Assembly: GCA_964369365.1 (NCBI GenBank)
Contig: CAYJES010000007.1
Location: forward strand, 799-64,798
DNA length: 64,000 nucleotides
Reading direction: 5' to 3'
From: an uncultured Lactobacillales bacterium
GTDB taxonomy: Bacteria; Pseudomonadota; Alphaproteobacteria; CAYJES01
This document shows positions 2,541 through 64,000 of the stretch, piece after piece. The translations under genes and the position numbers were made by a program. Numbering within the stretch: the stretch's first letter is position 1; each line of letters opens with the position of its first letter. Under the pieces are notes generated by a model. That model was given only the letters and a program-made list of their open reading frames with translations. It did no database searches and was not told where the DNA came from.

Positions 2541-3182
2541 TTATAATTTTTCTGGATTTGTGAAAAAATCAGCAATTTTATTTACAAATTGTCCCATATG
2601 ATAGCCATCTATGAAAGTGTGATTGATTTGAAAGCTATAGCATAGGATTTTTTTGCCATCTATGTTTTCTACTTTGCCCCAATCAAGAATAGGCATAGAT
2701 TGATGAGATGATAGTTTGCCAAAGGTTCCCCCTGTATATGAAAACCACGGAATACAGCTAAGTGAAATAAGATTTGATTCTTGTTGATCTTTTTCATTTG
2801 GAATATTGCCATTTTTGATATTGCCAATAATTTCATTTGCAGACTTTAAAAATTCATTGAAAGTTTTTGAATATGGAATTTTAGCAGTTGCAAATTGATG
2901 ATGTTCATCTCCATCGATTGTTATATAAGTTGCGGCATCTATAACTTCCATATCAAAAAGTTTTTCATCAATTTCGCGATAACGAAATTCAGGAACTTCG
3001 TTAGAAGCTTTTAAAAAAACATAAAGGCAAATAATAAAAAATGAAAGATTATTTTCTTTGCAAAAGTTATAAGAATCGGTAACGTCTACTTGGATTGTTT
3101 TGCCATAAAGAGGGCAGTCAAATGTTTTGAAAAAATTATATAAATCTTTTCTGTGCCATGTATCGATGTCTATTTGTTTCAT
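2541..3182 (-). CDS. Chloramphenicol O-acetyltransferase family protein (CAT, type A)
   Basis: 213 aa. N-terminal IDIDTWHRKDLYNFF and C-terminal INHTFIDGYHMGQF (catalytic His region) match the classical CAT fold. Confidence 0.65.
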   Translation of the reverse strand: MKQIDIDTWHRKDLYNFFKTFDCPLYGKTIQVDVTDSYNFCKENNLSFFIICLYVFLKASNEVPEFRYREIDEKLFDMEVIDAATYITIDGDEHHQFATAKIPYSKTFNEFLKSANEIIGNIKNGNIPNEKDQQESNLISLSCIPWFSYTGGTFGKLSSHQSMPILDWGKVENIDGKKILCYSFQINHTFIDGYHMGQFVNKIADFFTNPEKL

Positions 3183-3251: not shown

Positions 3252-4964
3252 TTAGTTGCCAGATCTTAATTTGAACTCACTTACTAAGTTTTGTAAAACT
3301 TCAGCTTGAGAGGCCAGTTTTTCGCCGGTAACAGCGCTTTCGTTTGCTGTTGCTGTGTTCGAATTAACAACAGTTGTGATTTGTTCAATGTCAGCAATTG
3401 TTTTATCAACAGCCGCTGATTGAGAAACGGATGCTTCTGAAATTTTTTCGATAATTTCAACTACTGCATTTGCATCATTTAACAGCTTAGTTGTGATAGC
3501 AGCAGTTTTGTTCGCGATTTCAGATCCGCTTTGAACCGCATCTAGTGAGTTTTGAATTAAAACAGAAGTGCCTTTTGATGCTTCTTTTGTTTTTAGGGCA
3601 AGGGTTTTAACCTCATCAGCTACTACTGCGAATCCTTTACCTGCAACGCCAGCTCTTGCTGCTTCTATTGTTGCGTTTAACGCTAACATATTTGTTTGGG
3701 TGGCAATGTCTTCAATAGTTTGGATTATGTTTCCAATTTCTTGCGAACAATTGCTAATTTCATTCATTGCAACGATAACAGATTGCATTTGTTCATTATT
3801 GTTTTCCATTTCAATAGTAACAGCTTTAACCATTTCGTTAGCAATCCTTGCATTGTCTGCATTTTCGTTTGTTTGAATGGATATGTCATTTGTTGAAGCG
3901 GAAACTCTTTGCACCGAACTGGCTTGTTCTTCTGCCCCCTTAGTAAATGCTTGTGAATCTTTAGTTACTTGTTCAGATTCTGCGGTTACTCTCATTGCTA
4001 CATCTTTAATATTTGCAAGCATATTGTTGCTTGATGTTATCATTGATTGAAGACCAATAGAAACAGCATCTTTATCAGATTTAGCAGCAACATTAATGGT
4101 ATAATCTTTATTTGCAATTTTATCAGTTATTACTGCGTACTCTGATAACATATTTTTTAAGTTATTCATAGCAGTTGCGATTAATCCTAATTCATCATTT
4201 GTAAAAAGGTTGCTAGGAACTTCAGTATTAATATCGCCAGTGTTTACAATTTCAGAAACTTTATTAGAAAGCGAAACCAATTTTTCACTTATCCAGGTTG
4301 CTAGAATTTTTACCGCATATAAAAGGGCAAATACGCCAGCTACATTGACGATAATTCCGAACAGAACCACAAAAGCAACAATAAAATTATTTCTGGTCAT
4401 TGTGCCTTCCATTATTTCTGTTTCATCTTCTAGGAAGGTTGCCACGCTCTCAAAAAACTTATTAGCAACAGGAGTAACACTACGTAAAGCTTGCAGTGCC
4501 TTTAAATCTGTTTCTGGATTGTTGCCGCCAGCTATTTTGATGTCTGCTGATAAAATCATGCTTTCTTTGTATTGATTCTTGCTGATGATAATTTCTTTGA
4601 AAGTATCTTTTTTGTCGCCTGATAATCTTTTAACAAAATCATCCATGCTCGAATCCAATAAATCAAAGTAATCAATATATCTTTTATACAATCCATCGCG
4701 AAGTTCTGGGTTTTCTTGAAGAAGGATATCACGTCCAAGAACCCTGCACATATACATAGTTTTTATAATGTCGTTAAGTAATTTTGTGTTGTGAACGTTT
4801 TGGGAAAATACCCTTTGAGACATGGCATTCACAGTGGTTAATGATATTGTTGAAATTAATGCAATAACAACAATAACCGCAATTGTAATTATCCTGATTG
4901 GATAAAACTTTTTGCTCATAGAAACGTTTGGTAACCAGTCTTGATATTTTTTGTATGCTTGCAT
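3252..4964 (-). CDS. Methyl-accepting chemotaxis protein
   Basis: Two TM segments flank a periplasmic domain of about 150 aa. A HAMP region follows. The highly conserved MCP signalling domain is present (...[34 protein letters not shown]...). Confidence 0.85.
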
Positions 4965-16064: not shown

Positions 16065-18491
16065 TTATGCCATTTCTAAATATTTTTGAACAAAGTTTTC
16101 TTCGCCAAATTCACGCATTAATTGTTCCGCTAATACAACGTGTTTACGACCAGAAGAATAAAGTTTTAGGTAAGGTCCAAGAGGTCCTAAGTTTACGTCC
16201 AAAATGACAGATTCACCGATAGCTGGACGAGATACCAAAATACCATATTTTAAATCTTTAAACTCTCTTCCGAAAATGAAATCTTTTTCACGTGGAGTTA
16301 GTCGCCAATTTTCATAATCTTCTTCCATACCTTGTGGATTTTTAAAGAAGATAACCGTTTGACACTGTCCCCTGATAACTTCGCCAAGTCCAAGGCTATC
16401 CACGATATTAGGTTGTTGGAAAGCGCATAGGAATGCTTGACGTTTTTTACGACCTTCTTGCAAACCTACGATAAAACTGTCCCTAAACATTGGGTGTTTT
16501 AACATCGGCGCAGTTTCATCAATCATAACCAAAGATGGATCACCAGTTGAGCTTGCTACTGTATTAATACGGTGCATAACATAGCTGATAACCGCTGGGG
16601 CTAGTAGTTCGTCTTCAAAAATATGGGTAAAGTCAAATGCCATAAATCTAGTGGTCATATCTAAATCATCGTTTGGTGAGTTAAATATACGTCCATATTG
16701 CTGGTCGTTAATCCAACGATAAAGCTCTCTTCTCATATGGCCTGTTGGTGAAAAACAGCTTTTATAAAGGTTTTTAAGAGTACGTTGGTTGAAATCTAAA
16801 TAATCAAAAGAGGTGGTAACCGCTCTTGCAATTTCACGTTCCGAATAAGAATCTGTTGCCATGGTAATAGATTTAATCCAACGACGTAAGAATGCCCTGT
16901 TTTCAGGAGTGTCTTGTGCTGATAATGGGTTAATAGCAGTTGCGTTTTTATCGCCATCAAAGTTTACATAAGCTCCTCCAATAGCTTTTGTAAAAATTTC
17001 AACACCTTTATGACGGTCAAAAAAGTATACACGGAGGTTGCTATGACGCATAGCTTGACCTGCTAAGAATGCTAGTAGTGTTGTTTTACCTTGACCAGTT
17101 GGACCAATAATCACAGCGTGGGCTACTGCTGCATCTTCTGTTGATACGTGGAATTGCCATTTATATGCTGTACCTGTTACAGTTCTGAATACTGCAATTG
17201 CCCCATCACCCCAGTCACTTTTTGCAAGTCCTTCTGTAGATGTTTCAAGACATAGCGCACAGCCAATCGCTCTTGATAAATATAAATAAGTTCTTGGATA
17301 TATTTCATAAGTTGGGAATTGGGCGAAGAATGAAGCTTCTGCTACCCAGCCATCTCTTACAGGAGTTACGCCATGAAGCCTAGTTAATCTTTCTACCTCA
17401 ATCTGTCCGAATTTTAACTCTTCCATACTTTCAGCAAAAACAAATAGTGTCATAGCGTACTCATGAATGGTTTGAGAACTTTCAGAAGCGCTATCCATTG
17501 CTTCTAGTACCATTGTAAATTGATCTGTGTTACCTTCTGCCACCGAAGTTGTAAATGATAATTGTCTTCTTCTGATTAAATCTGCTGCAGCCTTTGCTTT
17601 ATTTTTTGGTTTTATATTATGAAGCAGTGTTAATTCTACGTCTAATGATAGTAAATCAGCCACCATTTGTTCGTCAATATAATCCCCGCAAGAACGCATT
17701 CCCATAACAATGCCTAGTTTTTCATTCTCACCTGCAATAAATTTAATTAATCCCTTATCACCAGTAAAATGAATATAATCAGCAGTTAAAAGTCCGTTTA
17801 ATTCTGTTGTTTCTAAGTCGCCAACTTTAGGAGATGGTCTAGATAACGGACTTGCGATATTTGCAAATAAATGAAAAGGTGAAAGTTCTGGCGGAGAATT
17901 TTCATCCTCATACATTGGAGTCATGACAAATTCATCTAACATAGATTCAATAGCTATTATGCATTGTTCCAAATCTTTTTCTGCATTATCCCTATCAATA
18001 ACAGATAGAATAAGATGATGCTCATTTGTGTAAATCCTGTCTAAATTATCCTGCCATCTTTGGGCAACTTTTGATAGTAACTTATTTTCGAAACCAACAA
18101 GATTATCAACAGGAACACGTTTTCTTAAAGTTATAAATCTAGCAGTTATATTGCTTTCTGAAAGATTATCAACTACTCTCTTTTTTAAATCTAGTAAAAT
18201 TTCACGTTCTTTTGGGGCAAGTAGGGTCATGTCCTTGCCTTTTAGCTTGAACACCCTTACTATCGTATTGTCTTGGCATTCAATTGTCATTCCATCTTCT
18301 CTTAATCGTCTGAATGGAAGGAAGTCTGCTACCCTTGTTTCTCTTGGGCGGGGCAAGAAAAATGCACCTATTTTTGAAACTATTACTGCAATAAAAGCAG
18401 CTGCAGCACAAAACCCGATTATACCGATTGTTGTTTCAACTGTCGATATACTCTCAACAAATACAACATTTGCAAGTAAGCTAGGATCCAA
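16065..18491 (-). CDS. virB4: Type IV secretion system ATPase VirB4/TrbE family
   Basis: 808 aa. N-terminal TM segment. Walker A (GPTGQGKTT). Conserved VirB4 C-terminal ATPase domain. It overlaps the upstream virB3 stop. Confidence 0.85.
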   Translation of the reverse strand: MDPSLLANVVFVESISTVETTIGIIGFCAAAAFIAVIVSKIGAFFLPRPRETRVADFLPFRRLREDGMTIECQDNTIVRVFKLKGKDMTLLAPKEREILLDLKKRVVDNLSESNITARFITLRKRVPVDNLVGFENKLLSKVAQRWQDNLDRIYTNEHHLILSVIDRDNAEKDLEQCIIAIESMLDEFVMTPMYEDENSPPELSPFHLFANIASPLSRPSPKVGDLETTELNGLLTADYIHFTGDKGLIKFIAGENEKLGIVMGMRSCGDYIDEQMVADLLSLDVELTLLHNIKPKNKAKAAADLIRRRQLSFTTSVAEGNTDQFTMVLEAMDSASESSQTIHEYAMTLFVFAESMEELKFGQIEVERLTRLHGVTPVRDGWVAEASFFAQFPTYEIYPRTYLYLSRAIGCALCLETSTEGLAKSDWGDGAIAVFRTVTGTAYKWQFHVSTEDAAVAHAVIIGPTGQGKTTLLAFLAGQAMRHSNLRVYFFDRHKGVEIFTKAIGGAYVNFDGDKNATAINPLSAQDTPENRAFLRRWIKSITMATDSYSEREIARAVTTSFDYLDFNQRTLKNLYKSCFSPTGHMRRELYRWINDQQYGRIFNSPNDDLDMTTRFMAFDFTHIFEDELLAPAVISYVMHRINTVASSTGDPSLVMIDETAPMLKHPMFRDSFIVGLQEGRKKRQAFLCAFQQPNIVDSLGLGEVIRGQCQTVIFFKNPQGMEEDYENWRLTPREKDFIFGREFKDLKYGILVSRPAIGESVILDVNLGPLGPYLKLYSSGRKHVVLAEQLMREFGEENFVQKYLEMA

Positions 18492-19876: not shown

Positions 19877-21133
19877 ATGAAAACTTTTTCTGCTTTTGAA
19901 AGAATGGTTGCATGGCGATATTTGCGTTCTAAACGTAAAGAAGGTTTTGTTTCTGTTATTACTATTTTTTCTTTGTTGGGGATTTGCCTTGGCGTTGCTA
20001 CACTTATTATTGTTATGAGTGTTATGAATGGATTTCGTCATGAACTTTTAAATAGAATTCTTGGGCTTAATGGACATATGGGGGTTTACGCTTCGTACGG
20101 TACTTTATTGGGTGATTATGATTTAATCGGGCAAAAAATAAAAACTGCTAAAAATGTTGTAGGTGTAATCCCAATAGCAGAAGGTCAAGTTATGGTTACC
20201 TCTCCTAGAGGTGGGGTGCAAGGCGGTATCTTAAGAGGTATGAGAGCAAATGATTTGGCTTTTCATAGGGTTATTATGCAATCGCTAAAGGGAATGAATT
20301 TGGATGATTTTGATCGTCCGGATACGATTGTTCTTGGCTATAAATTGGCGCAAAAGCTTGGGGCGCAAATAGGAGATGAAATAACTTTGGTTTCTCCACA
20401 AGGCAAAGCAACCGCTTTTGGTACAGTACCAAGAATGAAATCGTTTGAAATTGTTGGTACGTTTAATGTGGGTATGCAAGAATATGATGCCAGTTTTATG
20501 TATATGAATTTAATAAATGCGCAAAATTATCTGGGTTTTGGCGATACAGTTTCTAATTTAGAAATTTTTATAGATAATCCGGACGATGTCGAATCGGTAC
20601 GTAAGGTTCTTGCTCCTATTGTCGGGGCTGGTGGATCGGTTGTTGATTGGCAAAAATCAAATTCTTCATTCTTTAATGCAATTCAAGTAGAAAGGAATGT
20701 TATGTTCCTTATCCTTACTTTGATCATTATTGTCGCGGCATTTAATATTATTTCAAGTCTTATAATGCTTGTAAAAGATAAAGGTAGAGACATCGGAATA
20801 CTGAGGACTATGGGTGCTTCTCGTGGTATGATAATGAGGATATTTTTCTTGTCTGGGTCTTTGGTTGGTGTCGTTGGCACTGTAATTGGGGTTATACTAG
20901 GGCTTACTTTTTGTGCGAATATCGAATCGATACGTCAGTTTTTGGAGTCCTTAACTGGTACAGAATTATTCTCGGCAGAAATATATTTCCTATCTCAGCT
21001 TCCTGCTAGGGTGGAATTTGGCGAAGTGGTTAATGTTATTTTAATGGCTCTTGGTCTTTCTTTTGGGGCTACTATTTACCCTGCGTTGAGGGCTGCAAAA
21101 ATGGATCCAGTGGAGGCGTTACGATATGAATAA
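19877..21133 (+). CDS. lolE: Lipoprotein-releasing system permease LolC/E (FtsX family)
   Basis: 418 aa with 4 TM segments, a periplasmic MacB-like domain and a C-terminal FtsX domain. It overlaps lolD by 8 nt. Confidence 0.85.
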   Translation: MKTFSAFERMVAWRYLRSKRKEGFVSVITIFSLLGICLGVATLIIVMSVMNGFRHELLNRILGLNGHMGVYASYGTLLGDYDLIGQKIKTAKNVVGVIPIAEGQVMVTSPRGGVQGGILRGMRANDLAFHRVIMQSLKGMNLDDFDRPDTIVLGYKLAQKLGAQIGDEITLVSPQGKATAFGTVPRMKSFEIVGTFNVGMQEYDASFMYMNLINAQNYLGFGDTVSNLEIFIDNPDDVESVRKVLAPIVGAGGSVVDWQKSNSSFFNAIQVERNVMFLILTLIIIVAAFNIISSLIMLVKDKGRDIGILRTMGASRGMIMRIFFLSGSLVGVVGTVIGVILGLTFCANIESIRQFLESLTGTELFSAEIYFLSQLPARVEFGEVVNVILMALGLSFGATIYPALRAAKMDPVEALRYE

Positions 21134-21869
21134 AAAAACTGTTTTATCTTTAAAAGGAATTAAAAAGAACTTTGTCCAAGGTGATAGTACTCTTGAAGTT
21201 TTAAAAGAAGTTGATTTAGAAGTGAAGGCAGGCGAGATTGTTGCTTTGGTTGGACCTTCTGGTGCTGGTAAATCTACGTTATTGCATATAATGGGATTGT
21301 TGGAACGTCCTGATGAAGGCGAACTTATCTTAAATGATATTTCTTGTGAACATGCTGATGATGATACAAGAACAATGTACAGAAGAGATTATCTTGGATT
21401 TGTTTATCAATATCATAACTTACTACCTGAATTTTCGGCTCTTGAAAACGTGATGGTGCCTCAAATGATTGCTGGTTTTCCAAAAGATTCAATCGAAAAT
21501 AGAGCATTGTGGTTGATTGAAAAAATGGGATTAATGGACAGGGCTTCTCATAGACCATCTGAATTATCAGGTGGAGAGCAACAAAGAATTGCAATCGCAA
21601 GAGCTCTTATTCATGAACCAAGATTATTGTTAGCCGATGAGCCTACTGGTAATCTTGATCCCCAAACTTCTAAAATAGTTTTTAATGAGTTATTAAAAAT
21701 GGTTAGGGAAACTGGACTTGCCGCTATTGTTGCAACACATAATCCTGAGCTTGCGGCTAAGATGGATAGGAAAATAACCTTGCATGATGGTAAGTTAACA
21801 GAGTTAGGCGGAAGTTATACTCGTGCTAAAAAATTTGAAAGTAAACCTTTTTCAAGAACTAAGGTATAA
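21126..21869 (+). CDS. lolD: Lipoprotein-releasing system ATP-binding protein LolD
   Basis: Walker A (GPSGAGKST), ABC signature (LSGGEQQR), Walker B (LLLADEPT). Confidence 0.9.
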   Translation: MNKKTVLSLKGIKKNFVQGDSTLEVLKEVDLEVKAGEIVALVGPSGAGKSTLLHIMGLLERPDEGELILNDISCEHADDDTRTMYRRDYLGFVYQYHNLLPEFSALENVMVPQMIAGFPKDSIENRALWLIEKMGLMDRASHRPSELSGGEQQRIAIARALIHEPRLLLADEPTGNLDPQTSKIVFNELLKMVRETGLAAIVATHNPELAAKMDRKITLHDGKLTELGGSYTRAKKFESKPFSRTKV

Positions 21870-21872
21870 GAA

Positions 21873-24800
21873 ATGACTAATTTTATCCATTTAAGAGTAC
21901 ATTCTGGCTATTCATTGTTGGAAGGTGCAATTAAGGTAAAAGATTTATTAGAGTTATGTAAAAAATATAATATGCCAGCGGTTGCTATTACTGATACTGG
22001 GAATATGTTTAATGGTGCTGATTTTTCGGTTAATGCTTCAAAAGATGGTATTCAACCTATTTTAGGGGTGCAATTATGGATAAAAAGAAAACCAACAAGT
22101 ATTTATGAAAAAGAACCAGAAAAGGCAAGTCAACTTGTGCTATTGGTACAAAATCAACAAGGATATAATAACATTATTAAATTGGTATCTAAAAGTTTTT
22201 TAGATATGACTGCCACTACTGAACATCCTTTTATTTATCTGGAAGATTTAAAAGAATATTCAGAAGGTTTGATTGCGCTTAGTGGTGGGGTTACAGGTAT
22301 TATAGGTTCTTGTTTGCTTAGTAGAAATAAAGAAGATGCAGCTGAAAATACATTACTGTTAAAAGATATTTATGGTGATAGATTTTATATGGAAATCATG
22401 CGCCATGGTGATGATAAAGAAATGATGACAGAGGGTGATTTTCTTAATCTTGCGTATGAACATAACATTCCTTTGGTTGCAACAAATAATGCATTTTTTA
22501 TTGATAGAGATTTTTATGAAGCAAATGATGCGTTAATTTGTATTGCTGAAAAAAAATACGTTAGTGATGAAGATAGAGATAGGTTAACAGAAGAGCATTA
22601 TTTCAAATCAAGTGAAGAAATGATAGAATTATTTTCTGATTTACCAGAAGCAATCGAAAATACTGTAAAAATAGCAAAACGCTGCGGTTTTATGATTGAA
22701 AAAACTAGTGTAATGTTCCCGATTTATACAGCCGATGATATGGGTGATTTATCAGAATTTGAATTGATGAAAAAGAGGGCAGAATCTGGACTTGTTGAAA
22801 AATTTGGAAAAATGGGAGAAGTGGATAAAGAAGAATACGAAAAAAGATTGGAATATGAAATAAACATTATTAACCAAATGGGGTTTTGTGGTTATTTTTT
22901 AATCGTATCTGATTTTATTATGTATTCTAAACAAAATGGAATTCCGGTTGGTCCTGGTCGTGGTTCTGGGGCTGGATCTTTGGTTGCGTGGTGTTTAGGT
23001 ATTACCGATCTTGACCCACTTAGGTTCGGGCTTTTATTCGAACGTTTCCTTAATCCTGAACGTGTTTCGATGCCTGATTTTGATATCGACTTTTGCCAAG
23101 AAAAGCGCGAAAAAACTATTCAATATGTTCAAGAAAAATATGGATATGATAAAGTAGCACAAATCATTACTTACGGTAAATTACAAGCAAAAGCAGTAAT
23201 AAGAGATGTGGGAAGGGTGTTGCAAATTCCTTTTCCTGTGGTGGATAAATTTGCAAAAAAAATTCCTACTAAAAATCCTGATAATCCTAATAAGCCTGTT
23301 ACATTAAAAATGGCAGTGGATCTTGAACCTGAACTTGCACAAATGATTAATGAAGAAAGAGATATCAAAAAAATGTATGATATTTCACGCAAGTTAGAAG
23401 GTCTTTACAGAAATGCATCGACCCATGCTGCTGGAGTTGTGATTGGCCCAAGACCTCTTGATACTATCATTCCTTTATATAAAGATATTCGTTCGCCTAC
23501 TCCTGTTACTCAATTTGATATGAAATGGGTAGAAGACGTAGGGCTTATAAAATTCGACTTTTTAGGACTTAAAACTTTGACCGTTATTGATAAAGCGGTG
23601 CAATTAATTGAAAAAAATCATGGCGTGAAAATTGATATAGCTGATATTCCATTGGAGCAAAAAGAAGCATTTGAACTACTGCACAGCGCCCAAACATCTG
23701 GCGTGTTCCAGTTGGAGAGTGGTGGTATGCGTGATGTGTTAAGACAGGTAAAACCCGATAGTTTAGAAGAAATTACGGCTGTGGTTGCGCTTTATCGTCC
23801 CGGTCCTATGGCAAATATTCCAACCTATGCCAACAGAAAGTTTGGCAGAGAGCCAATCGAATCGATACATGAAAAGCTTGATGATTTGTTAAGCGAAACA
23901 TACGGCATTATCGTATATCAAGAACAGGTTATGGAAATTGCTAAAATTCTTGCTGGATACTCTTTGGGTGGATCGGATTTATTAAGGCGCGCCATGGGTA
24001 AAAAGAAAAAAGAAGAAATGGATGCGCAAAGAAAAGTCTTTGTAGATGGCTGTCTTAAAAATGAAATAAGCGAACAAAAAGCGACAGAAGTATTCAACTT
24101 GATGGAAAAATTTGCTGAGTACGGCTTCAATAAATCTCATGCTGCTGCTTATGCTTTGATTGCTTATCAAACCGCATATCTTAAGGCTTTGTATCCTGCA
24201 CCTTTTATGGCTGCTACTATGACTTTGGATATCAATAATACTGATAAGCTTGCTGAGTTTAAAGTTGAAATTGATAAAATGGGAATCGAAATTTTAACCC
24301 CAGATATAAATAAATCAGAAGTGGAATTTAGTGTTGAAAATGGCAAAATAAGATATGCTTTAGGGGCAATTAAAAACGTTGGTTCCGCTGCTATGCAATC
24401 CATTATTGATGAAAGAAACGAAAACGGAGAATTTAAATCATTAGAAGATTTCACAAACCGTTATGATGTTCATCAAGTAAACAGAAAATGTTTAGAGAAT
24501 ATGGCAAAAGCAGGGTGTTTTGATTCTTTGGAGTTAAATCGCAATAAAATTTTTCAAAATATAGATAGAATTATTAATGCAGGTAGTAATGCGTCTATGG
24601 ATAGGAAAAGTAATCAAATAAGTTTGTTCGGAGATGCGCCGGTTACAGATATAATCAAATTTGAAGCTTGCGAAGATTGGACGCAAATTGAAAGATTGCG
24701 ATTTGAACAAGACGCTCTTGGTTTTTATTTGTCTGCCCATCCGCTAGACGGAATTAATAGGGCGCTTAAAAGACTTAAGGTGACAAATCTTGTAGATATT

Positions 24801-25307
24801 GACGAAGTCGTAAAAGAAAAAGCAGGATATTATTCAGTGGCTGGAATTATTTCTGGGTCAAGAAGTGGGGTTACAAAAACAGGGAAAAAATACTTTATTG
24901 TATCGCTTGCAGATAAAACAGAATCCAAAGATTTCTTTATGTTTGGTGAGGCATTTGAAAAAAATAGAGATATGTTCGAATCGGAAAAAGTTTTGCTAGT
25001 TGAATTAAAAGGCGAAATGAAAGCCGATGACAGCGGTATAAGATACAGCATAATAAGCGTTGATGATTTGGAAAAAAGAAAAGCTGCTCTTAATGCTGAA
25101 TTTGAAATTACTATTAGCCATGATAAAGTAATTAATGAATTAAACAAGTTGCTAGATACTGTAAAAGGCGGCAAAAATGACGTGTTTATATGTTGTAATG
25201 CTTTGGGACATAAAGTAAATATGGAAATTGGAAAATATAATATCGATAAAGAATTGCGTTATAAAATATCAATTCTTGATGGTGTTGATAGCGTCGAAGA
25301 AGGCTGA
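21873..25307 (+). CDS. dnaE: DNA polymerase III alpha subunit
   Basis: 1144 aa. N-terminal PHP domain (HLRVHSGYSLLEG). Polymerase core motifs (PDFDIDF, GLLKFDFLGLKTL). OB-fold C-terminus. Confidence 0.95.
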   Translation: MTNFIHLRVHSGYSLLEGAIKVKDLLELCKKYNMPAVAITDTGNMFNGADFSVNASKDGIQPILGVQLWIKRKPTSIYEKEPEKASQLVLLVQNQQGYNNIIKLVSKSFLDMTATTEHPFIYLEDLKEYSEGLIALSGGVTGIIGSCLLSRNKEDAAENTLLLKDIYGDRFYMEIMRHGDDKEMMTEGDFLNLAYEHNIPLVATNNAFFIDRDFYEANDALICIAEKKYVSDEDRDRLTEEHYFKSSEEMIELFSDLPEAIENTVKIAKRCGFMIEKTSVMFPIYTADDMGDLSEFELMKKRAESGLVEKFGKMGEVDKEEYEKRLEYEINIINQMGFCGYFLIVSDFIMYSKQNGIPVGPGRGSGAGSLVAWCLGITDLDPLRFGLLFERFLNPERVSMPDFDIDFCQEKREKTIQYVQEKYGYDKVAQIITYGKLQAKAVIRDVGRVLQIPFPVVDKFAKKIPTKNPDNPNKPVTLKMAVDLEPELAQMINEERDIKKMYDISRKLEGLYRNASTHAAGVVIGPRPLDTIIPLYKDIRSPTPVTQFDMKWVEDVGLIKFDFLGLKTLTVIDKAVQLIEKNHGVKIDIADIPLEQKEAFELLHSAQTSGVFQLESGGMRDVLRQVKPDSLEEITAVVALYRPGPMANIPTYANRKFGREPIESIHEKLDDLLSETYGIIVYQEQVMEIAKILAGYSLGGSDLLRRAMGKKKKEEMDAQRKVFVDGCLKNEISEQKATEVFNLMEKFAEYGFNKSHAAAYALIAYQTAYLKALYPAPFMAATMTLDINNTDKLAEFKVEIDKMGIEILTPDINKSEVEFSVENGKIRYALGAIKNVGSAAMQSIIDERNENGEFKSLEDFTNRYDVHQVNRKCLENMAKAGCFDSLELNRNKIFQNIDRIINAGSNASMDRKSNQISLFGDAPVTDIIKFEACEDWTQIERLRFEQDALGFYLSAHPLDGINRALKRLKVTNLVDIDEVVKEKAGYYSVAGIISGSRSGVTKTGKKYFIVSLADKTESKDFFMFGEAFEKNRDMFESEKVLLVELKGEMKADDSGIRYSIISVDDLEKRKAALNAEFEITISHDKVINELNKLLDTVKGGKNDVFICCNALGHKVNMEIGKYNIDKELRYKISILDGVDSVEEG

Positions 25308-47596: not shown

Positions 47597-49246
47597 CTAT
47601 TTGTCAATCTTGCTATCAAAAAATTTGTTAAGAGTAAATACTCGATTAAAACCAGCAGTTTTGTTTTTTGAATCTTTTACTGCTTTATCTTCTCTTATTG
47701 TTCGTTCTGACTTTTCGATAGATAAAGAAGTTTTCATTTCTGATCTAATAGTGCTATCATTTTCTTTAGGTGTAACAAATTCATAGTTTTTATTCATTAA
47801 TGATTTAATTGTTGCCATTAATTGTTTTGGGTAATCAACAGGATATTTTATGAAATCTTTGAACGGAATCATATTAACAAGTTTTGATACGTTAATGTTT
47901 TTTAATTTTCCTTTGATAGATTCTGGCATTTCTTTTATCAATTCCGGAACTTTCTTTGTGCTATCTTTTTGGGCTTCAAAATCTTGAATCCCATCGATTA
48001 ATAATAATCCTTTTAAAATAGCCATCCTGTCTAAATCCCCAGTTTCTATAATTCCTTTGAATGCATTATGCAAATCAGGGTGGCTGTCATCTCTTGCATG
48101 GAATGTAGACGCAAAAGCGATATCATATAACTCTTTATCTGTTTTGTTGCAAATGCCAGCTTTATTCATTTCTTCAATTGCACCTTTGAAATCTTCCATT
48201 TGGGTAAGGCCTTTTAAAGAATATAAATGCCCTTGTTTTGCAGCATCAACCAACGCCATAGCATGCCCATGTGCAATAGCCATAATATTCAATTGAAAAT
48301 CATTTATAAAGTTTTCGTCCTCGTTTAATGAAGATGTTTTTTGGTTAAATAAAAAGTTTTTAGCATGGATTTGAGAAATTACAGTAAAATCTACGTATCT
48401 TTGATCATCAACATAAGTCATGCCGTAGTCTGTTTTTGTTGCATCAACATTAATAACAGCATCATTTGTAGGGACATATGCACTAAGATAATTGCTATCT
48501 GTTTCTTCTTCTATAATATTTATAACAGGCACGCCATGTTTATATAAATTACGAAGCGCTTCATCATGTTCAGGATTGTTTCTTATTCTGTTTAAAGATT
48601 GTTCAAATAATCCTTTGTCACCACCCATAAAATCTTTAATAATGTCGTTTTTAAGCCCAGTAATAGCAGGAATAGGCATGTCTGGGGAAAGGGTTTCAAT
48701 AGCTACTTTTGCTGGTAATTCAATGTTTATGTTGTCGTGAAGCGCAGAAAAACTTCCTGAAAGAGCCCCTACAAGTAAAAAACCACCAACCAAACCAAGC
48801 ATTTTTTTCTTATGCTTTTGCATAAAGCTTTCATCTAATCCTTTTGCTTTTGCTCCAGATGTTAAAACTTTGCCTTTTAATGTGGTTGCAAGAACATCTA
48901 TTACATTTTCTTTATCTGTAGATTGTGGTTCTATGCCTTTATTTGTATATTTGCCTTTATATAAATCAATAATGTTAATAGCATCAGGGTGTTTTGATGG
49001 TGATAAGAATTTTTTATCACCTTTTACTCTGTCATGATTTAGAATTTTAGATAATGCTTCTGATAAAGCTGGGGTTGTTTTTTTATAGTTTAAAGCAAAT
49101 ATAACCAAAGCAGATTTGTGTCTTTTTGATGCATAAATGTTTACAGATGCATCATCAATTCCCTTTAATACTCCGTCTAAATTACCATTTTCGCAAGCTG
49201 TAAAAAAGTTTTCAGTTGTGTGATCTGAATAGTTGTGAGCGCTCAT
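47597..49246 (-). CDS. Large orphan protein with a central TM helix (hypothetical; candidate secreted or effector-like)
   Basis: Start placed at MSAHNYS (49246), which has an aggaga RBS. The ORF track extends to 49294. Possible single ankyrin-like N-terminal unit. TM helix MLGLVGGFLLVGALSGSFSAL. Lys-rich C-terminus. Confidence 0.45.
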   Translation of the reverse strand: MSAHNYSDHTTENFFTACENGNLDGVLKGIDDASVNIYASKRHKSALVIFALNYKKTTPALSEALSKILNHDRVKGDKKFLSPSKHPDAINIIDLYKGKYTNKGIEPQSTDKENVIDVLATTLKGKVLTSGAKAKGLDESFMQKHKKKMLGLVGGFLLVGALSGSFSALHDNINIELPAKVAIETLSPDMPIPAITGLKNDIIKDFMGGDKGLFEQSLNRIRNNPEHDEALRNLYKHGVPVINIIEEETDSNYLSAYVPTNDAVINVDATKTDYGMTYVDDQRYVDFTVISQIHAKNFLFNQKTSSLNEDENFINDFQLNIMAIAHGHAMALVDAAKQGHLYSLKGLTQMEDFKGAIEEMNKAGICNKTDKELYDIAFASTFHARDDSHPDLHNAFKGIIETGDLDRMAILKGLLLIDGIQDFEAQKDSTKKVPELIKEMPESIKGKLKNINVSKLVNMIPFKDFIKYPVDYPKQLMATIKSLMNKNYEFVTPKENDSTIRSEMKTSLSIEKSERTIREDKAVKDSKNKTAGFNRVFTLNKFFDSKIDK

Positions 49247-49328
49247 AAAAATATCTCCTGATATATATAATTTTTTATAGTTGTATTCTAACAAAAATTA
49301 TCACTTTTGTCAACTTATTTGTTGTTTT

Positions 49329-54899: not shown

Positions 54900-56936
54900 A
54901 TGGTAAAAATTTTTACAAGTGGTGAAACAATATCAAATTCTTCTCATGAACAATATGAAAGTATTCAATGTGGGATTTTTATAGGTGCTGAAAGTTTATT
55001 ACAAGCATATATAAGGCAAATTGATCCAAAAGAGTTTCTTAAAATATGTGAAAGAAATTTTGCAGGCAAATCAATAAATGAAATCCCAAGCATGGATGCT
55101 TTGATGTATATTTCGTCTCTTATTGACAATAAAAAGGATTTTTTGGCAGAAAAAATGCTGTCTGAATATATTAAAACTTATGATACAAGGGATATTTTCA
55201 GATTTTATAAAGTAACAAAACTTGCAAGCCAAAAAGGTATTTTAGATGATAATATCGAAAAAGCTTTATATGTTTATGGCGAACTTAAAAATGCAAGAAA
55301 TGAAGGCCTGCTTGCAAAAATGCTTGAAGGCAAAAAAATAGCAATAGTAGGTAGCGCCCCATCTGAAATTGGGAAAGGTCATGGTGAAGAAATAGATAGT
55401 TATGACCATTGTATTAGGTTTAATAATTTTAAAATTTTACCCGAGCACGAGGTCGATTATGGTTCGAAAATTGACATATGGGCCAGAAATACGGTAAATG
55501 AAGATGTTGTTGATAGAAAAGATGAAGACTTTTCAATAATAATATTACAATCTGATTTTGAATTTGGGCCTGTAATGTATGACCATATGGATATTATGTA
55601 TCGTGATTTAAAGCAAGGTAAAAAATACTATTCTATTGAAATGGCGACAATAAAAGAATTAAAAATAGCTTCTAGAGTATATCCTATTTCTGCTGGATTT
55701 ACTGTGTTTGGAGAGATATTAAGAATTAAAAAAGGTGATACTTCATCATTTGGATTGTTTGGTTTTGCTCTTGATGATGAGGCAGCAAGTAAATTTGGAG
55801 ACCATTATTTTGAAGTAAGAAATGAAGATGAAATAAAAAATGATTTAATAGGATGTTTTTTCACTGAAGAAGCTGGATTTATGGCTTACGCACTTAAAAA
55901 ATCACAAGAATTAAGTCGTATATGGGAAAGAAGAAATGCTGTTATTGTAAATAATCCAAAACAAAAAGGAGCTGGAGATGGGGTTATAGCAATATGTGAA
56001 GCGTTAAGACGACATATCCCAGATTTAGAATATAACTTTGTTGAGACAGCTGATGAAGTAACAGAAAAGCCATATATAGTTTGGAGTGTTGGTCCTGATA
56101 CTACTGATATTGCAATGGAAATCATAAAAAAACACAATCCTGATTTTGTGTTTGGTATGAAAGACCCATATGATGATGCTGATGTTGAAGAATATGTATT
56201 ATATAGTAAAATTATAGATACAATGGGAACTTTACAAACAGCTAAAGTAAATGTAGCACGTCCTGATTTAGTTTACTTTCCAGATTTTCCTCCATTTTCT
56301 ATGACTAAATATGGGCTTGGGCAATTTAAGTATGCTCCTGTCTTAGATATTTTTAATCCTGATTTATTGATTTCAATTGGTGGAGCTGATCCTTATACAA
56401 ACCGTGATGTAGTAGAAGGAGATATTGATAATTTATTAAAATTAGCTCAAAATTTTAAAGAAAATATCGGTGGAAAAGTTGCATTTTTAACTAGTAATAG
56501 AACAAATGATAAGGTGATAGAATATCTTAAATCTAAAAAAGATAAACAAGACGCTTTGTCTGATTTTAAAAGTGCAACGCTATATTATGATGATAAAGAA
56601 TTTAAAGATTTAAAAAGTGTTTATCAAGCATTTATAATAAACAGTAATTATTTTGTTCAAACAGATGATAGTTTATCAATGATGGCAGAATTAACGGTGA
56701 GAGAGGGTAAATTAGTAATATATCAAACATTAGGAACTGACAGCTCAACTCAACGTAGAATTAATGTTGCAAATTCTGTTGTTGAATCTGGAAATGCTAT
56801 AATTGTAGATGAAAATATTATAAATTCAGATGATAAAAATGAAATATTCAAAAAAGTAGAAAATTCAAAATCGTTAGAAGGAGTGATAGATAGAAAAATA
56901 GCAAGGATGTTGTACGATATAACAAAAATTAAATAA
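54900..56936 (+). CDS. Two-domain putative glycosyltransferase: Cst-II/GT42-like N-terminal module (paralog of 6206..7321) fused to an ELM1/DUF1022-like GT-B-like C-terminal module
   Basis: The N-terminal 370 aa align with the 6206 ORF (KKIAIVGSAPSEIGKGHGEEIDSYDHCIRFNNF...VDYGSKIDIWARNT). The C-terminal part (ISIGGADPYTNRD...KVAFLTSNRTNDK...QTDDSLSMMAELTVREGKLVIYQ) resembles ELM1-family proteins. Confidence 0.35.
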   Translation: MVKIFTSGETISNSSHEQYESIQCGIFIGAESLLQAYIRQIDPKEFLKICERNFAGKSINEIPSMDALMYISSLIDNKKDFLAEKMLSEYIKTYDTRDIFRFYKVTKLASQKGILDDNIEKALYVYGELKNARNEGLLAKMLEGKKIAIVGSAPSEIGKGHGEEIDSYDHCIRFNNFKILPEHEVDYGSKIDIWARNTVNEDVVDRKDEDFSIIILQSDFEFGPVMYDHMDIMYRDLKQGKKYYSIEMATIKELKIASRVYPISAGFTVFGEILRIKKGDTSSFGLFGFALDDEAASKFGDHYFEVRNEDEIKNDLIGCFFTEEAGFMAYALKKSQELSRIWERRNAVIVNNPKQKGAGDGVIAICEALRRHIPDLEYNFVETADEVTEKPYIVWSVGPDTTDIAMEIIKKHNPDFVFGMKDPYDDADVEEYVLYSKIIDTMGTLQTAKVNVARPDLVYFPDFPPFSMTKYGLGQFKYAPVLDIFNPDLLISIGGADPYTNRDVVEGDIDNLLKLAQNFKENIGGKVAFLTSNRTNDKVIEYLKSKKDKQDALSDFKSATLYYDDKEFKDLKSVYQAFIINSNYFVQTDDSLSMMAELTVREGKLVIYQTLGTDSSTQRRINVANSVVESGNAIIVDENIINSDDKNEIFKKVENSKSLEGVIDRKIARMLYDITKIK

Positions 56937-60298: not shown

Positions 60299-60982
60299 AT
60301 GAAAAAAGGAATGAAACAGAATTTATTTTATATAAAAACCAGCATGTTTGCTATGGTTTCTGCTGTTCTTGTACTTGTACTCCTCGCTGCGTAGGCAGCA
60401 TATATAATATACCCCAAAACTATATAACTAATGATGAAAAACCCTAATAATAAATTAAGGAATAACGAAATGAATATAAATATAAAAGAAATGACAAATT
60501 TAATAGTAGACGCAGCAAAAAAAGGCGCAATAGTTGAACCAATCGCACATATAACGAAAGAAATTGCAAAAAAAATAACTAAACGTGCCACTAAACAAAT
60601 TTCTGAGATACAACACAATTGCCCAGAACGTAAAGCATTAATATTTTCTAATTATAAAAAAATAATTCAAGGATTGGCATATGAAGAATCAAGTAATAGG
60701 GCTGTTCATGAATTGCCAAGAAAAGATAAATTAAGGATTGTTGCACATGAATATATTGCAGCAGCTGTGAAAGTGGTTGATGAAAATGATTATAAATTCA
60801 AAAAAGTCAACGGTGAAAAGGTATTGATATTAAAACCTAATAAGGAGCAATATAAAGGGGCTATTAACTTTAATGAATTTTCACAAACAGAAATAAGAGA
60901 AGAAATCCAAAAATTTACATCTCCTGCTTCTAATAGAGTTTACTGGGTTGTGATGAGCGGACTTTTTGGTCATCAAAGATAG
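60299..60982 (+). pseudogene. Probable nonsense-disrupted secreted-protein gene. A signal-peptide mini-ORF lies in frame with the 183-aa ORF at 60431..60982.
   Basis: From the ATG at 60299 the frame reads MKKGMKQNLFYIKTSMFAMVSAVLVLVLLAA, then TAG, then AAYIIYPKTI, then TAA, then L-MMKNPNN..., which is the ORF-track 183-aa protein. All are in the same frame. The 183-aa body could also be expressed on its own from the ATG at 60431. Confidence 0.35.
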
Positions 60983-61130
60983 TATTTTAGTGTTGTTGCT
61001 TGGCTCACATCTACATAGCTGGTAACTAATTAATAGTTTAATTCTAAACCCCTAGGTTGTGAGCTTATGCATATCCTTGTTTTTTTATTTTCATTAATTA
61101 CTTTTAAACTGAAAGTATTGCATTATATGG

Positions 61131-61175
61131 TATAATATAATATAATATAATATAATATAATATAATATAATATAA
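61131..61175. repeat. Perfect (TATAA)x9 pentanucleotide microsatellite in the promoter region of the Pmp-like gene
   Basis: tataa repeated 9 times, then tatat. A TTGCAT -35-like hexamer lies at 61118-61123. Each unit junction creates a TATAAT -10 hexamer. Confidence 0.9.
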
Positions 61176-61214
61176 TATATCTATATATGCATAAAAAATT
61201 GAGGGAGAACATCT

Positions 61215-64000
61215 ATGACCACATTAAATAAAAACTTCAAATTAAAGCAAACAAAAAAATGTTTGCTAAGGGTGTTATCCGTGTTTGTGGCGCTTTTTAG
61301 CACTATATTTTTGACTTCAATCCCGGCCTATTCATTTGAAATTGACTCAGATGAAATTGTCTATGGTGGTGCTATTATGACGGTAAACTCTAATTTAAAT
61401 ATCATTGGTGGTGTCGATAAAGCCACTACTCTAACCCTTTCAAACAATACTTCTGACACATCTGGAGGAGCTATGTATGTTCGTAATGATTTTTATAAAT
61501 ATGATCCTATGCCAATAGCAACGGTTAATATTAATGGATATTTTAAATTAATGAGCAATATTTCCTATTCTTTCGGCGGAGGGATGTATTTTTACTGTGG
61601 CAATTCTGCAGATGTAGTAACTATGAAAGTTAATATAGCAAATGATAGTAATATAATAGGATTAAAAAACTATGGTGCTCGAAGTTATTGGTATGGTGGA
61701 GGCGCGGTTATGGCTTTTGCAGGATTAATAGATGTTGATATTGATGGGGTTATGACATTTACAGAAAATCGCACCAATGGATCAGGAGGAGCGCTGCTTT
61801 TCTATTTTGATAGGGGGTATGGTAAACAAATTATTGATTTTAAAAGCACAAGTAATATAACTGGCGTTGGTAATTATAGTAGCCGTGGCGGTGGAACGAT
61901 GGTATTTCATGTAACAAGAGGTGATAGAGAGCAAGAAGTTAATTTTAAAGGAATGATGAAATATGAAAATAACTCTTCTAGCGAGAAAGGTAGTGCGTTT
62001 TACTTTTGGATTGACCAAGAAAGATCAAAACCAGTAAAGCAAACTGTTGATTTTGGCGGCACTATGGAATTTATTAATAATGGCAGAGGAATTAATAGAT
62101 ACGGGGATGATATAATAACCAAAAGAGGAGGAGCAATTTTTATGTGGGCTAGAGGAGATGATAGGATGGCGGAAACGAATGCTAGTTTCACTGGCAACAT
62201 GAAATTTGAAGGAAACGTTGCTGAATATGCTGGAGGGGCGATATATGTTGGGGTTATGTATTCACCTAAATCGGTGAATGTTGATTTTGGAGGTACTATG
62301 GAATTTATTAATAATGAAGTGCTACTATCCAGCTCTAGCCTTCATTCTGATAAATACGGAGGTGGTGCAATTGCTATGAGAAGAGAAGGAGGCAGTGGAT
62401 CTGTAAATGCTAATTTTAGCGGGAGTATGGTGCTAACTGGCAATAAATCAGTACTTGTAAGGACGGATGCTATTTATGATAGATATGACAATGTTGGAGG
62501 TGGGGCTCTATTTTTTGATAAATGTAGTGATATTAATTTTATTGGCACTATGTATTTGGGTGTAAATGCATTAGGAAAAACAGTTGACGACGAGGGAAAT
62601 TCACTTGGTAATATTGATCCGCATAGAGGAGGGGCAATGTATTTTAGTTATTGTAGTGAGATTAATTTTGAGGGAGAACTGAAGTTAATTGGTAATAAAA
62701 CAACACTAATAAGTGATGGTTATGGCGGAGGAGCTATATTTTTTAATGCATGTAGTGAGATTAATTTTAAAGGAGTTATGGAGTTAACTGAAAATACTGC
62801 TAGCTATGATGGAGGAGCAATGTATTTTGATAATTGCTCTAATGTTGATTTCGGAGTTGATAGCGATTTAACGTTCATAAAAAACAAAGCTCATAAACTG
62901 TCATTTTTGTCAAACTACGGTAATGGCGGAGCTATCTTTTTTAGATCTTCTTCGGGCACTCGAACAATAAATTTTAATGGAAAAATGGAGTTGATTGAAA
63001 ATAAAACGTATAGTGACGGTGGTGCGATGTCATTCGAAAATACTAATTCAGCTAAAATAAATGTTTATTTTAATGTAGGTAGTGATACTGATGTAATCCG
63101 TAATGATGGAAATTATGGTGCAGGACTTAATTTTACAGAATGTAGCGATGTTAGGTTTGCCGGTGATCTTTTGTTGGATGGAAACACTTCTGAAAGTAGT
63201 TCATCTATGGAGGTTTCAAGTTTTATAGGAGGGGGTGCGATGTTTAATAATTGCGCTAACGTGTATTTTGATGAGGGTGACTCATCGACAATAACAACTG
63301 TTATAAATAACACTGCGAGTTCAGGTGGCGGGTTAAATTTTACAAGCACATCAAATATTTTCATTAATGGAAAAATGTTAGTTGATAACAATGAGGCGAC
63401 TAAGAAGGATAGTGGTGGTGGAGGATTTGCATTTTGGTCTGCGGAGAATGTGCAAATAAATGGAGATATTAAAGTAACAAATAATTTTGTTAATGGTGCT
63501 GGGGCAGGATTACTGTTTAATGAATGTTCAGTTGTAACAATTGCGGGCAAATTGGATATTTCTAATAATAACGTAGATATTGCAGGTAGTGGCGGTGCAG
63601 GAATTACTATGAAAGATAATGGTACTGTAAATATATATGGCATAATAAATATAAATGACAACCATGCGGACAATCCTACTAATATTACTGGTGGATATGG
63701 CGGTGGATTATCTGTTATAAATTCAGAAAATTTAGCTTTTGGTGGGTATTTTAATTCTGGGGTAGCTACAAAGGTTGATGGATCATCGATTTCTGTAAAT
63801 AATAACACTGCTGGTGTTCATGGTGCCGGTCTTTATATTCAAGAAGTTCACAATGTTCACTTTTTAGGTGGAAGTCGTAGTGGAGAAATCGGAATAAATG
63901 GAGGATTAACTGTGTCTGGAAACGAGGCGCAAGGAACCGGAGGTGGAATAACAATATTAAATAATAATGGAATTTCTGGTGAGTATAATATTTATTTCGC
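61215..64000 (+). CDS. Pmp-like (polymorphic membrane protein repeat) autotransporter passenger. The 5' part is shown here. It continues beyond the window.
   Basis: RBS gagggag 7 nt upstream of the ATG at 61215. Signal peptide (LLRVLSVFVALFSTIFLTSIPAYSF). More than 20 repeats of roughly 25-30 aa carry GGA[IMVL]xF motifs (GGAMYF, GGGAIFF, GGALLF) and FxxN motifs (FKGVMELTEN, FEGELKLIGN). The frame is open to the last base. Confidence 0.75.
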   Translation, partial: MTTLNKNFKLKQTKKCLLRVLSVFVALFSTIFLTSIPAYSFEIDSDEIVYGGAIMTVNSNLNIIGGVDKATTLTLSNNTSDTSGGAMYVRNDFYKYDPMPIATVNINGYFKLMSNISYSFGGGMYFYCGNSADVVTMKVNIANDSNIIGLKNYGARSYWYGGGAVMAFAGLIDVDIDGVMTFTENRTNGSGGALLFYFDRGYGKQIIDFKSTSNITGVGNYSSRGGGTMVFHVTRGDREQEVNFKGMMKYENNSSSEKGSAFYFWIDQERSKPVKQTVDFGGTMEFINNGRGINRYGDDIITKRGGAIFMWARGDDRMAETNASFTGNMKFEGNVAEYAGGAIYVGVMYSPKSVNVDFGGTMEFINNEVLLSSSSLHSDKYGGGAIAMRREGGSGSVNANFSGSMVLTGNKSVLVRTDAIYDRYDNVGGGALFFDKCSDINFIGTMYLGVNALGKTVDDEGNSLGNIDPHRGGAMYFSYCSEINFEGELKLIGNKTTLISDGYGGGAIFFNACSEINFKGVMELTENTASYDGGAMYFDNCSNVDFGVDSDLTFIKNKAHKLSFLSNYGNGGAIFFRSSSGTRTINFNGKMELIENKTYSDGGAMSFENTNSAKINVYFNVGSDTDVIRNDGNYGAGLNFTECSDVRFAGDLLLDGNTSESSSSMEVSSFIGGGAMFNNCANVYFDEGDSSTITTVINNTASSGGGLNFTSTSNIFINGKMLVDNNEATKKDSGGGGFAFWSAENVQINGDIKVTNNFVNGAGAGLLFNECSVVTIAGKLDISNNNVDIAGSGGAGITMKDNGTVNIYGIININDNHADNPTNITGGYGGGLSVINSENLAFGGYFNSGVATKVDGSSISVNNNTAGVHGAGLYIQEVHNVHFLGGSRSGEIGINGGLTVSGNEAQGTGGGITILNNNGISGEYNIYF

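Follow-up and report, generated by a model that had tools for sequence, protein, structure and literature searches.

A 64 kb window of DNA from an uncultured bacterium (64,000 nt of contig CAYJES010000007.1, assembly GCA_964369365.1; 'the window' below means this whole stretch, with positions counted from its first nucleotide) ends within a long open reading frame (ORF) on the forward strand that starts at position 61215. This ORF is a real and well-delimited gene for a repeat protein with a β-helical body, and the protein is a member of the PF02415/TIGR01376 class of polymorphic membrane protein (Pmp or POMP) repeats. The N-terminal region is consistent in sequence with a Sec signal peptide, and a right-handed parallel β-helix is strongly predicted as the fold of the protein. 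We regard it as evenly balanced whether the gene encodes the passenger part of a type Va autotransporter adhesin, and it is plausible, by analogy with known loci, that a perfect pentanucleotide simple sequence repeat (SSR) upstream of the start codon acts as a switch of its expression.

Reading frame, repeats and predicted fold

The frame runs from ATG 61215 to position 64000 without a stop (928 codons), as the earlier note on this DNA had stated in describing at least 928 residues that were still open. An in-frame TGA at 61200-61202 lies ahead of the ATG, with a Shine–Dalgarno-like sequence close by (Table 1). A word-index search of 5.8 billion proteins returned a single entry, P0001, a singleton of 1053 aa from a 66,616-nt NCBI contig, which is 100% identical to the window ORF across the 928 aa and continues for 125 aa past the window, so that coding extends to at least the window-equivalent position 64373. 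The codon score of the ORF (0.25) is inside the gene-like range, for which real genes gave 0.37 ± 0.11 with a fifth percentile of 0.194. Three antisense ORFs are nested within this sense frame with its family support. They had been set aside as artefacts and are indeed shadows rather than genes, because none has a Pfam family and their codon scores are poor (Table 1 for the longest, rounding to 0.14, and negative values of −0.31 and −0.14 for the shorter ORFs at 61782-62018 and 62000-62200).

Anchoring on GG[AG]-type motifs divides the repeat region into 26 units, two of which are of double or triple length, giving ∼28-29 rungs. The motif map and the unit list show a rung pattern GGA[IM][YF]F ... 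[IV]NFxGxMxLxxN, with a unit length of typically 26-46 aa and a median near 34; the GGA and FxxN signatures are as the earlier note described them, and its repeat length of about 25-30 residues was slightly too short. The motifs are enriched far above chance: the GGA-type 6-mer pattern occurs 17 times in the ORF and once in the remaining six-frame translation of the window (17:1), and all nine window matches to the extended pattern [IV][NDT][FI]xGx[MLIV]x[FLVI]xxN fall within it. At the DNA level the repeat copies have diverged (60-95% identity), and the protein is rich in Gly, Asn and Ser. No paralogue of the gene is present elsewhere in the 64 kb. Family membership was assessed with the PF02415 (Chlam_PMP) hidden Markov model (HMM), the scan that had been proposed as a check on the Pmp assignment, and the assignment held: with a curated cut-off of 20.6 bits, the 928 aa score 30.3 bits, the 1053 aa 33.4 bits and residues 305-634 by themselves 48.4 bits, and TIGR01376 also scores above its cut-off (18.9 versus 15).

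Residues 16-38, which follow a Lys-rich start, form the sole hydrophobic segment of the protein in the hydropathy profile. The signal peptide, already called in the earlier note, was judged by hydropathy alone and the putative cleavage site (Table 1) was placed by the −3/−1 rule; the first 40 residues contain no lipobox.

Single-sequence AlphaFold2 (AF2) models were obtained for the whole product [predicted local distance difference test (pLDDT) 53, predicted template-modelling score (pTM) 0.61] and for a 401-aa segment comprising residues 428-828 (pLDDT 68.7, pTM 0.78). Both are all-β solenoids with three short strands per rung and loops of low confidence, in agreement with the β-helical passenger that had been proposed. 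The Foldseek lists against the PDB, although non-significant, consist nearly entirely of right-handed parallel β-helices, including the autotransporter passengers Fap2, TibA, Ag43, Hbp and UpaB, with the adhesin PfbA, lyases and tailspikes among the further neighbours; a PDB sequence search matched no chain. The β-helical fold is well supported because the AF2 models, the Foldseek lists and the published description of the Pmp rung (PMC10715098) point the same way. In such a fold a buried GGA[IM]YF motif would pair with an [IV]NFxG...N motif in each rung, and the rungs would stack into one long right-handed parallel β-helix.

Relatives, the C-terminus and the autotransporter question

When 1.84 billion representatives were searched exhaustively with phmmer (E ≤ 1e-3), 27 proteins were returned including P0001 itself, i.e. 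26 non-self matches, the best of which (P0006) has an E value of 6.8e-18 and 34% identity; no relative was found in the genome-contig or metagenome-contig scans. By these searches P0001 is a sequence orphan. The matches include two proteins from a Rickettsiales metagenome-assembled genome (MAG), MDR2077843.1 (P0008) and MDR2077396.1 (P0027), and one brown-alga protein. Many look eukaryotic (P0007, P0010, P0011, P0013, P0021, P0023, P0024 and P0031), being encoded on megabase contigs and ending in C-termini that are rich in Cys or resemble cytoplasmic tails; one carries the annotation Sphacelaria rigidula. They show how widespread Pmp-type rungs are beyond bacteria. The view that such repeats are uncommon outside Chlamydiae, expressed in the earlier note, is contradicted both by these relatives and by the literature: chlamydial sequences make up less than one third of PF02415 proteins, of which almost 200 come from outside bacteria (PMC11166332), and over 100 species other than Chlamydiae have PF02415 repeats, with GGGM variants of the kind found here among them (PMC10715098).

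Full-length Pfam scans of 16 matches detected PF02415 in 14 and a barrel in none, and an early reading that no relative has a barrel was overturned when C-terminal pieces of 420-660 aa were rescanned alone. The PF03797 autotransporter barrel then scored 91 bits in P0006 (residues ∼2165-2413) and 122 bits in P0163 (residues ∼1440-1690), a protein from the cluster of the phmmer match P0015; full-length hmmscan had reported neither (E ≤ 0.001-0.01). Full-length scans can thus miss a strong PF03797 domain in long repetitive proteins, so that 'no barrel' calls on repeat proteins need separate C-terminal scans. Judged by its domains, the closest relative P0006 (2607 aa, from a JGI metagenome and annotated as a 'predicted outer membrane repeat protein') is a Pmp-repeat autotransporter. 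Both P0006 and P0163 (1725 aa) share the rung motifs of P0001, and in them this rung type serves as an autotransporter passenger outside Chlamydiae. They differ from P0001 in that the likeness is at the level of the repeats (25-34% identity) and in having a post-repeat region of several hundred residues followed by PF03797, neither of which is seen in P0001; P0006 additionally has a weak sub-threshold match to OmpA (E 0.15), also unseen in P0001. The Rickettsiales proteins P0008 and P0027 are likewise Pmp-repeat proteins from an alphaproteobacterial order, and in P0008 a signal peptide is present and a barrel could not be detected; they differ in being ∼30% identical over short stretches, in their very regular rungs and in an 'F.GN...LYD.I' module after the repeats that is absent from P0001.

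Chlamydial Pmps are built from a signal peptide, a repeat region of 9-25 rungs, a middle region and a barrel (PMC10715098). P0001 resembles them in its signal peptide, in having one pair of GGA(I,L,V)-type and FxxN-type motifs in each rung of ∼30 aa, in the long regular β-helix that is predicted and in the association of the gene with a simple repeat, comparable to the poly-G tract of pmpG. It differs in using GGAM/GGGM-YF motif variants, in its rung number (at least 26-28, compared with 9-25 in the Pmps of Chlamydia trachomatis; PMC10715098), in its alphaproteobacterial host and in the type of SSR, a promoter-proximal pentanucleotide rather than an in-frame homopolymer. No chlamydial protein was identified among the 26 non-self matches. 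The PF07548 middle domain with its conserved Rung-0 Asp had no match in P0001 or in pieces of it, although a C-terminus beyond the sequence on record could hold one, and it was not found in the non-chlamydial relatives that were scanned. Lacking PF07548 and not being close to the chlamydial proteins, P0001 is, on sequence grounds, not a chlamydial-type Pmp sensu stricto. Among structurally characterized proteins, the one that Foldseek ranks first for the full-length model is Fusobacterium nucleatum Fap2 (PDB 9qe7), a type Va adhesin that likewise has a very long β-helical passenger and uses it for host-cell binding; this match is non-significant (E 0.1, TM-score 0.18).

The product is predicted to be exported by Sec through a signal peptide of ∼40 aa, and nearly all of the remainder is a stack of ∼28 Pmp-type rungs. 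The likeliest single reading, at about even odds, is that the gene encodes an autotransporter passenger. The barrel would then be inserted by the β-barrel assembly machinery (BAM), the passenger would be threaded outward, folding from its C-terminal end, and the β-helix would extend outward from the cell to act in adhesion or host contact, as chlamydial Pmps and Fap2 do. The reading requires that the sequence continues. The repeats of P0001 reach to ∼30 aa from its end, its last rungs (GNSGALYL, ASPITMTS) are degenerate, and a coil with two Cys residues makes up the final 21 aa. In all five bacterial relatives with a judgeable C-terminus, the last rung is followed by non-repeat sequence of at least 150 aa, and P0001 ending right after its repeats would fit a product that is cut off early. 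We place truncation of P0001 by the contig end at, or marginally under, an even chance, and it is about as likely as its opposite that a post-repeat region and a 12-stranded PF03797 barrel lie beyond the available sequence.

Several results count against the passenger interpretation. Neither PF03797 nor PF07548 was found in P0001, scanned whole or as its C-terminal 184 aa, and the 1053 aa on record contain no α-helical linker; the autotransporter-like character claimed earlier is therefore upheld for the signal-like N-terminus and the β-helical repeats, and not for the translocator, which does not appear even with the 125 aa past the window. The likeness to the barrel-bearing relatives is confined to the repeats (25-26% identity with 20-25% gaps over ∼1000 columns), P0008 and P0025 showed no barrel on C-terminal scanning, and no Foldseek match in the PDB was significant (best E 0.1 for the full-length model and 0.013 for the segment). 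The C-terminus of P0001 had been considered by eye as the start of a module that four relatives share past their repeats ('F.GN...NAIYL...LYD.I'); an HMM of this module did not match it and the candidate was rejected. The position of the window on its contig also matters, because truncation of P0001 at the contig end requires the window to begin ∼2,242 nt into the 66,616-nt contig. At the left edge of the window, a 68-codon ORF (3-209) has gene-like codon usage (0.405), and neither an exact look-up nor a word search found a protein in the collection that shares its words, whereas every other gene of the contig that was looked up is present. This hints, without proving it, at a contig start close to window position 1; ∼2.2 kb would then follow residue 1053 and the ORF would end at a real stop. 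The argument depends on assumptions about the way in which the window was excised and short genes at the edges were stored.

On such an offset, the ORF could be complete at 1053 aa and encode a barrel-less Sec-exported Pmp-repeat β-helix that stays in the periplasm or reaches the surface or the medium by another route, for instance through type II secretion or a partner protein with a gene of its own. This alternative is possible but falls clearly short of an even chance. The lack of both domains in the 1053 aa and the missing left-edge protein speak for it, the degenerate last rungs and the two-Cys coil could be a cap, and barrel-less PF02415 proteins are common (PMC10715098), as P0008 (1284 aa, from the Rickettsiales MAG), P0025 and P0020, which ends in a FlgD_ig domain in place of a barrel, illustrate among the relatives. 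It has to contend with the best homologue P0006 and with P0163, which are true autotransporters, with the 150 aa or more past the repeats that every judgeable relative has and P0001 does not, with the assumptions behind the offset and with the failure to find an alternative export signal. The same offset would leave ∼2,240 nt after the ORF, enough for the 500-550 aa of post-repeat region and barrel seen in P0163 and P0006, and P0001 could then be part of a decaying or split autotransporter in which a premature stop, a frameshift or an assembly indel at codon 1053 separates the repeats from a middle region and barrel downstream. P0008 resembles such a truncated form. We consider this improbable, as the 3.2-kb ORF is otherwise intact and has normal codon usage. 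Still less probable is that the β-helix is not an adhesin but the scaffold of an enzyme of the polysaccharide lyase, glycosidase or epimerase type: the Foldseek neighbours include many PL6/K1 lyases, polygalacturonases, AlgE epimerases and phage depolymerases, but these matches are non-significant and mirror the shared solenoid fold, the Pfam and NCBIfam scans gave no enzyme family, and no inserted catalytic loops were identified among the monotonous Pmp rungs.

The TATAA tract and its promoter-like context

The tract upstream of the gene is the only strong SSR in the 64 kb, where the next-best tandem repeat scores 54 in Tandem Repeats Finder (TRF) terms against 98 for the tract (Table 1). Over its 49 nt it forms a TATAAT hexamer every 5 bp. 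In a consensus scan, a σ70-like promoter candidate matches ten of 12 consensus positions and has a TG before the −10 element, and its −10 hexamer is the first TATAA unit, directly after TGG. The overlap of the (TATAA)x9.8 tract with a promoter-like −10 site agrees with the SSR promoter to which the earlier note had coupled the gene. As a consensus match, the promoter call is a consistent reading of the sequence rather than evidence that the site functions. Between the ORF upstream and the promoter-like site, an inverted repeat GCTCACA ... TGTGAGC (61003-61064; 7-nt arms, 48 nt apart) is followed by a T-rich run at 61080-61091 and may be a terminator or a regulatory structure.

Transcription would probably be driven by the TG-extended −10 at the first TATAA unit, and the remaining units would either be transcribed as leader or serve as alternative −10 boxes. 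By analogy with other loci, slipped-strand gain or loss of 5-bp units might tune or switch expression. If the −10 of the first unit is the one used, unit changes would alter the length of the leader and the number of downstream TATAAT hexamers and not the spacing between −35 and −10. There are precedents for SSRs at adhesin genes: in the hmw1A promoter of Haemophilus influenzae the length of a 7-bp SSR tract is inversely related to adhesin expression (bioRxiv 10.1101/744037), and pmpG carries poly-G tracts (PMC4488443). The present locus shares with hmw1A/hmw2A a short tandem repeat between the promoter and the start of a large secreted-adhesin gene; it differs in its unit, which is 5 bp long and is itself a −10 box, and in being known from one sequence only, and HMW1A is a two-partner-secretion protein rather than a Pmp-repeat protein.

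Two findings tell against a switch: promoter-like sites in the region are not more frequent than in shuffled sequence (two found, 3.1 expected), and the evidence for the SSR comes from one copy of the locus with one tract length. The opposing interpretation takes the tract for an incidental AT-rich microsatellite, or for a promoter or UP-like element that is static, and expects constitutive or ordinarily regulated expression of the gene; it stands in our estimate at an equal balance of probabilities. A genome of ∼32% G+C fits it, as do the promoter scan, which is no richer than shuffles, and the unaltered spacing between the −35 and the first −10 when units change. It is less easily reconciled with a perfect 49-nt pentanucleotide tract that is unique in 64 kb and that sits between a promoter-like site and the ribosome-binding site of a surface-protein gene, the classic place for a contingency SSR. 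A more specific proposal joins the barrel-less product ending at residue 1053, exported by a route other than type Va, to a 'sliding −10' SSR rheostat, in which each TATAA unit regenerates a TATAAT −10; such a rheostat has not been described for known contingency loci, and we judge the two together unlikely.

Host, neighbouring genes and significance

The window has ∼32% G+C, and ORFs of at least 100 aa cover ∼89% of it. Its genes include lpxC, ligA, recN, pepA, a ZntB/CorA-type transporter gene, dnaE, mfd, recG, lysS, tyrS and ppk1, as well as genes for a methyl-accepting chemotaxis protein and a VirB4-family ATPase. DnaE has three NCBI relatives at 68-73% identity; its other best matches are Rhodospirillales-type Alphaproteobacteria at 49-53% (Caenispirillum, Kiloniella, Pelagibius, Fodinicurvata and Magnetospirillum). 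Against reference genomes, the best among the matches listed are Alphaproteobacteria at no more than 55%, and the non-alphaproteobacterial ones are mostly at 40-44%. These identities support an alphaproteobacterial host, as had been assumed, that is far from any named genus. The closest relatives of the organism are represented only by short-contig NCBI assemblies without annotation; in one of them (GCA_964368695.1, contig CAYJCO010000004.1) DnaE is 73% identical and the order of lolC/E-like, lolD-like and dnaE genes is that of window positions 19877-25307. The housekeeping proteins of the host are all singletons at 90% identity.

Table 1. Coordinates of the Pmp-repeat gene, its upstream elements and other features of the window.
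Feature	Position	Strand	Remarks
Pmp-repeat protein ORF, part within the window	61215-64000	+	928 codons, still open; from translation
Signal-peptide-like N-terminus, aa 1-40	61215-61334	+	Lys-rich n-region, hydrophobic core 16-38, putative cleavage AYS/FE
Pmp repeat region	61365-64000	+	aa 51-928 in the window, continuing to ∼aa 1020 in P0001
Shine–Dalgarno-like GAGGGAG	61201-61207	+	7 nt 5' of ATG 61215; sequence read directly
Perfect pentanucleotide SSR, (TATAA)x9.8	61131-61179		TRF 100% matches, score 98; 36 nt 5' of the start codon
σ70-like promoter candidate	61109-61136	+	−35-like CTGAAA at 61109-61114, 16-nt spacer, TG-extended −10 TGGTATAAT at 61128-61136
Antisense ORF, 231 aa	63113-63808	−	Codon score 0.143, below the fifth percentile of real genes; no Pfam family
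183-aa ORF	60431-60982	+	No Pfam or NCBIfam family; directly precedes the Pmp-repeat gene, same strand
678-aa ORF adjoining lpxC	54900-56936	+	No NCBIfam family; GT29 (sialyltransferase) 23.5 bits, cut-off 23
565-aa ORF	47597-49294	−	No Pfam or NCBIfam family
VirB4/CagE-family type IV secretion ATPase	16065-18491	−	TIGR00929 364 bits, below the cut-off of 643
Methyl-accepting chemotaxis protein	3252-4964	−	Notable in an alphaproteobacterium of ∼32% G+C
Chloramphenicol acetyltransferase-family ORF	2541-3182	−	PF00302, E 6.7e-25

The 678-aa ORF, which lies four genes upstream of the Pmp-repeat gene, also has a sub-threshold ELM1 match, and its family scores suggest that it may be a surface-glycan glycosyltransferase. 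The VirB4-family gene is flanked by genes for a TrhP-like U32 peptidase and a Vut_1 transporter, with no obvious virB operon. Apart from the tRNA-Leu region, positions 1-905 are the only long stretch of the window without an ORF of at least 100 aa; the ∼700 nt after the short ORF at the left edge lack a convincing ORF, and their Rfam matches are all weak and below threshold.

The finding does not overturn current understanding: the Pmp-repeat protein is a fairly ordinary addition to a widespread family, and SSR control of adhesin genes is already well known from hmw1A and pmpG. The TATAA tract would be a convenient natural marker for SSR-driven tuning of expression in an uncultured organism. 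If the gene does encode an autotransporter adhesin, the family would gain a highly divergent Pmp-type passenger with no fewer than 26-28 rungs, from a deep uncultured alphaproteobacterial lineage that also has chemotaxis and VirB4-type genes, and this would back the view of the Pmp rung as a general building block of surface β-helices rather than a chlamydial speciality.

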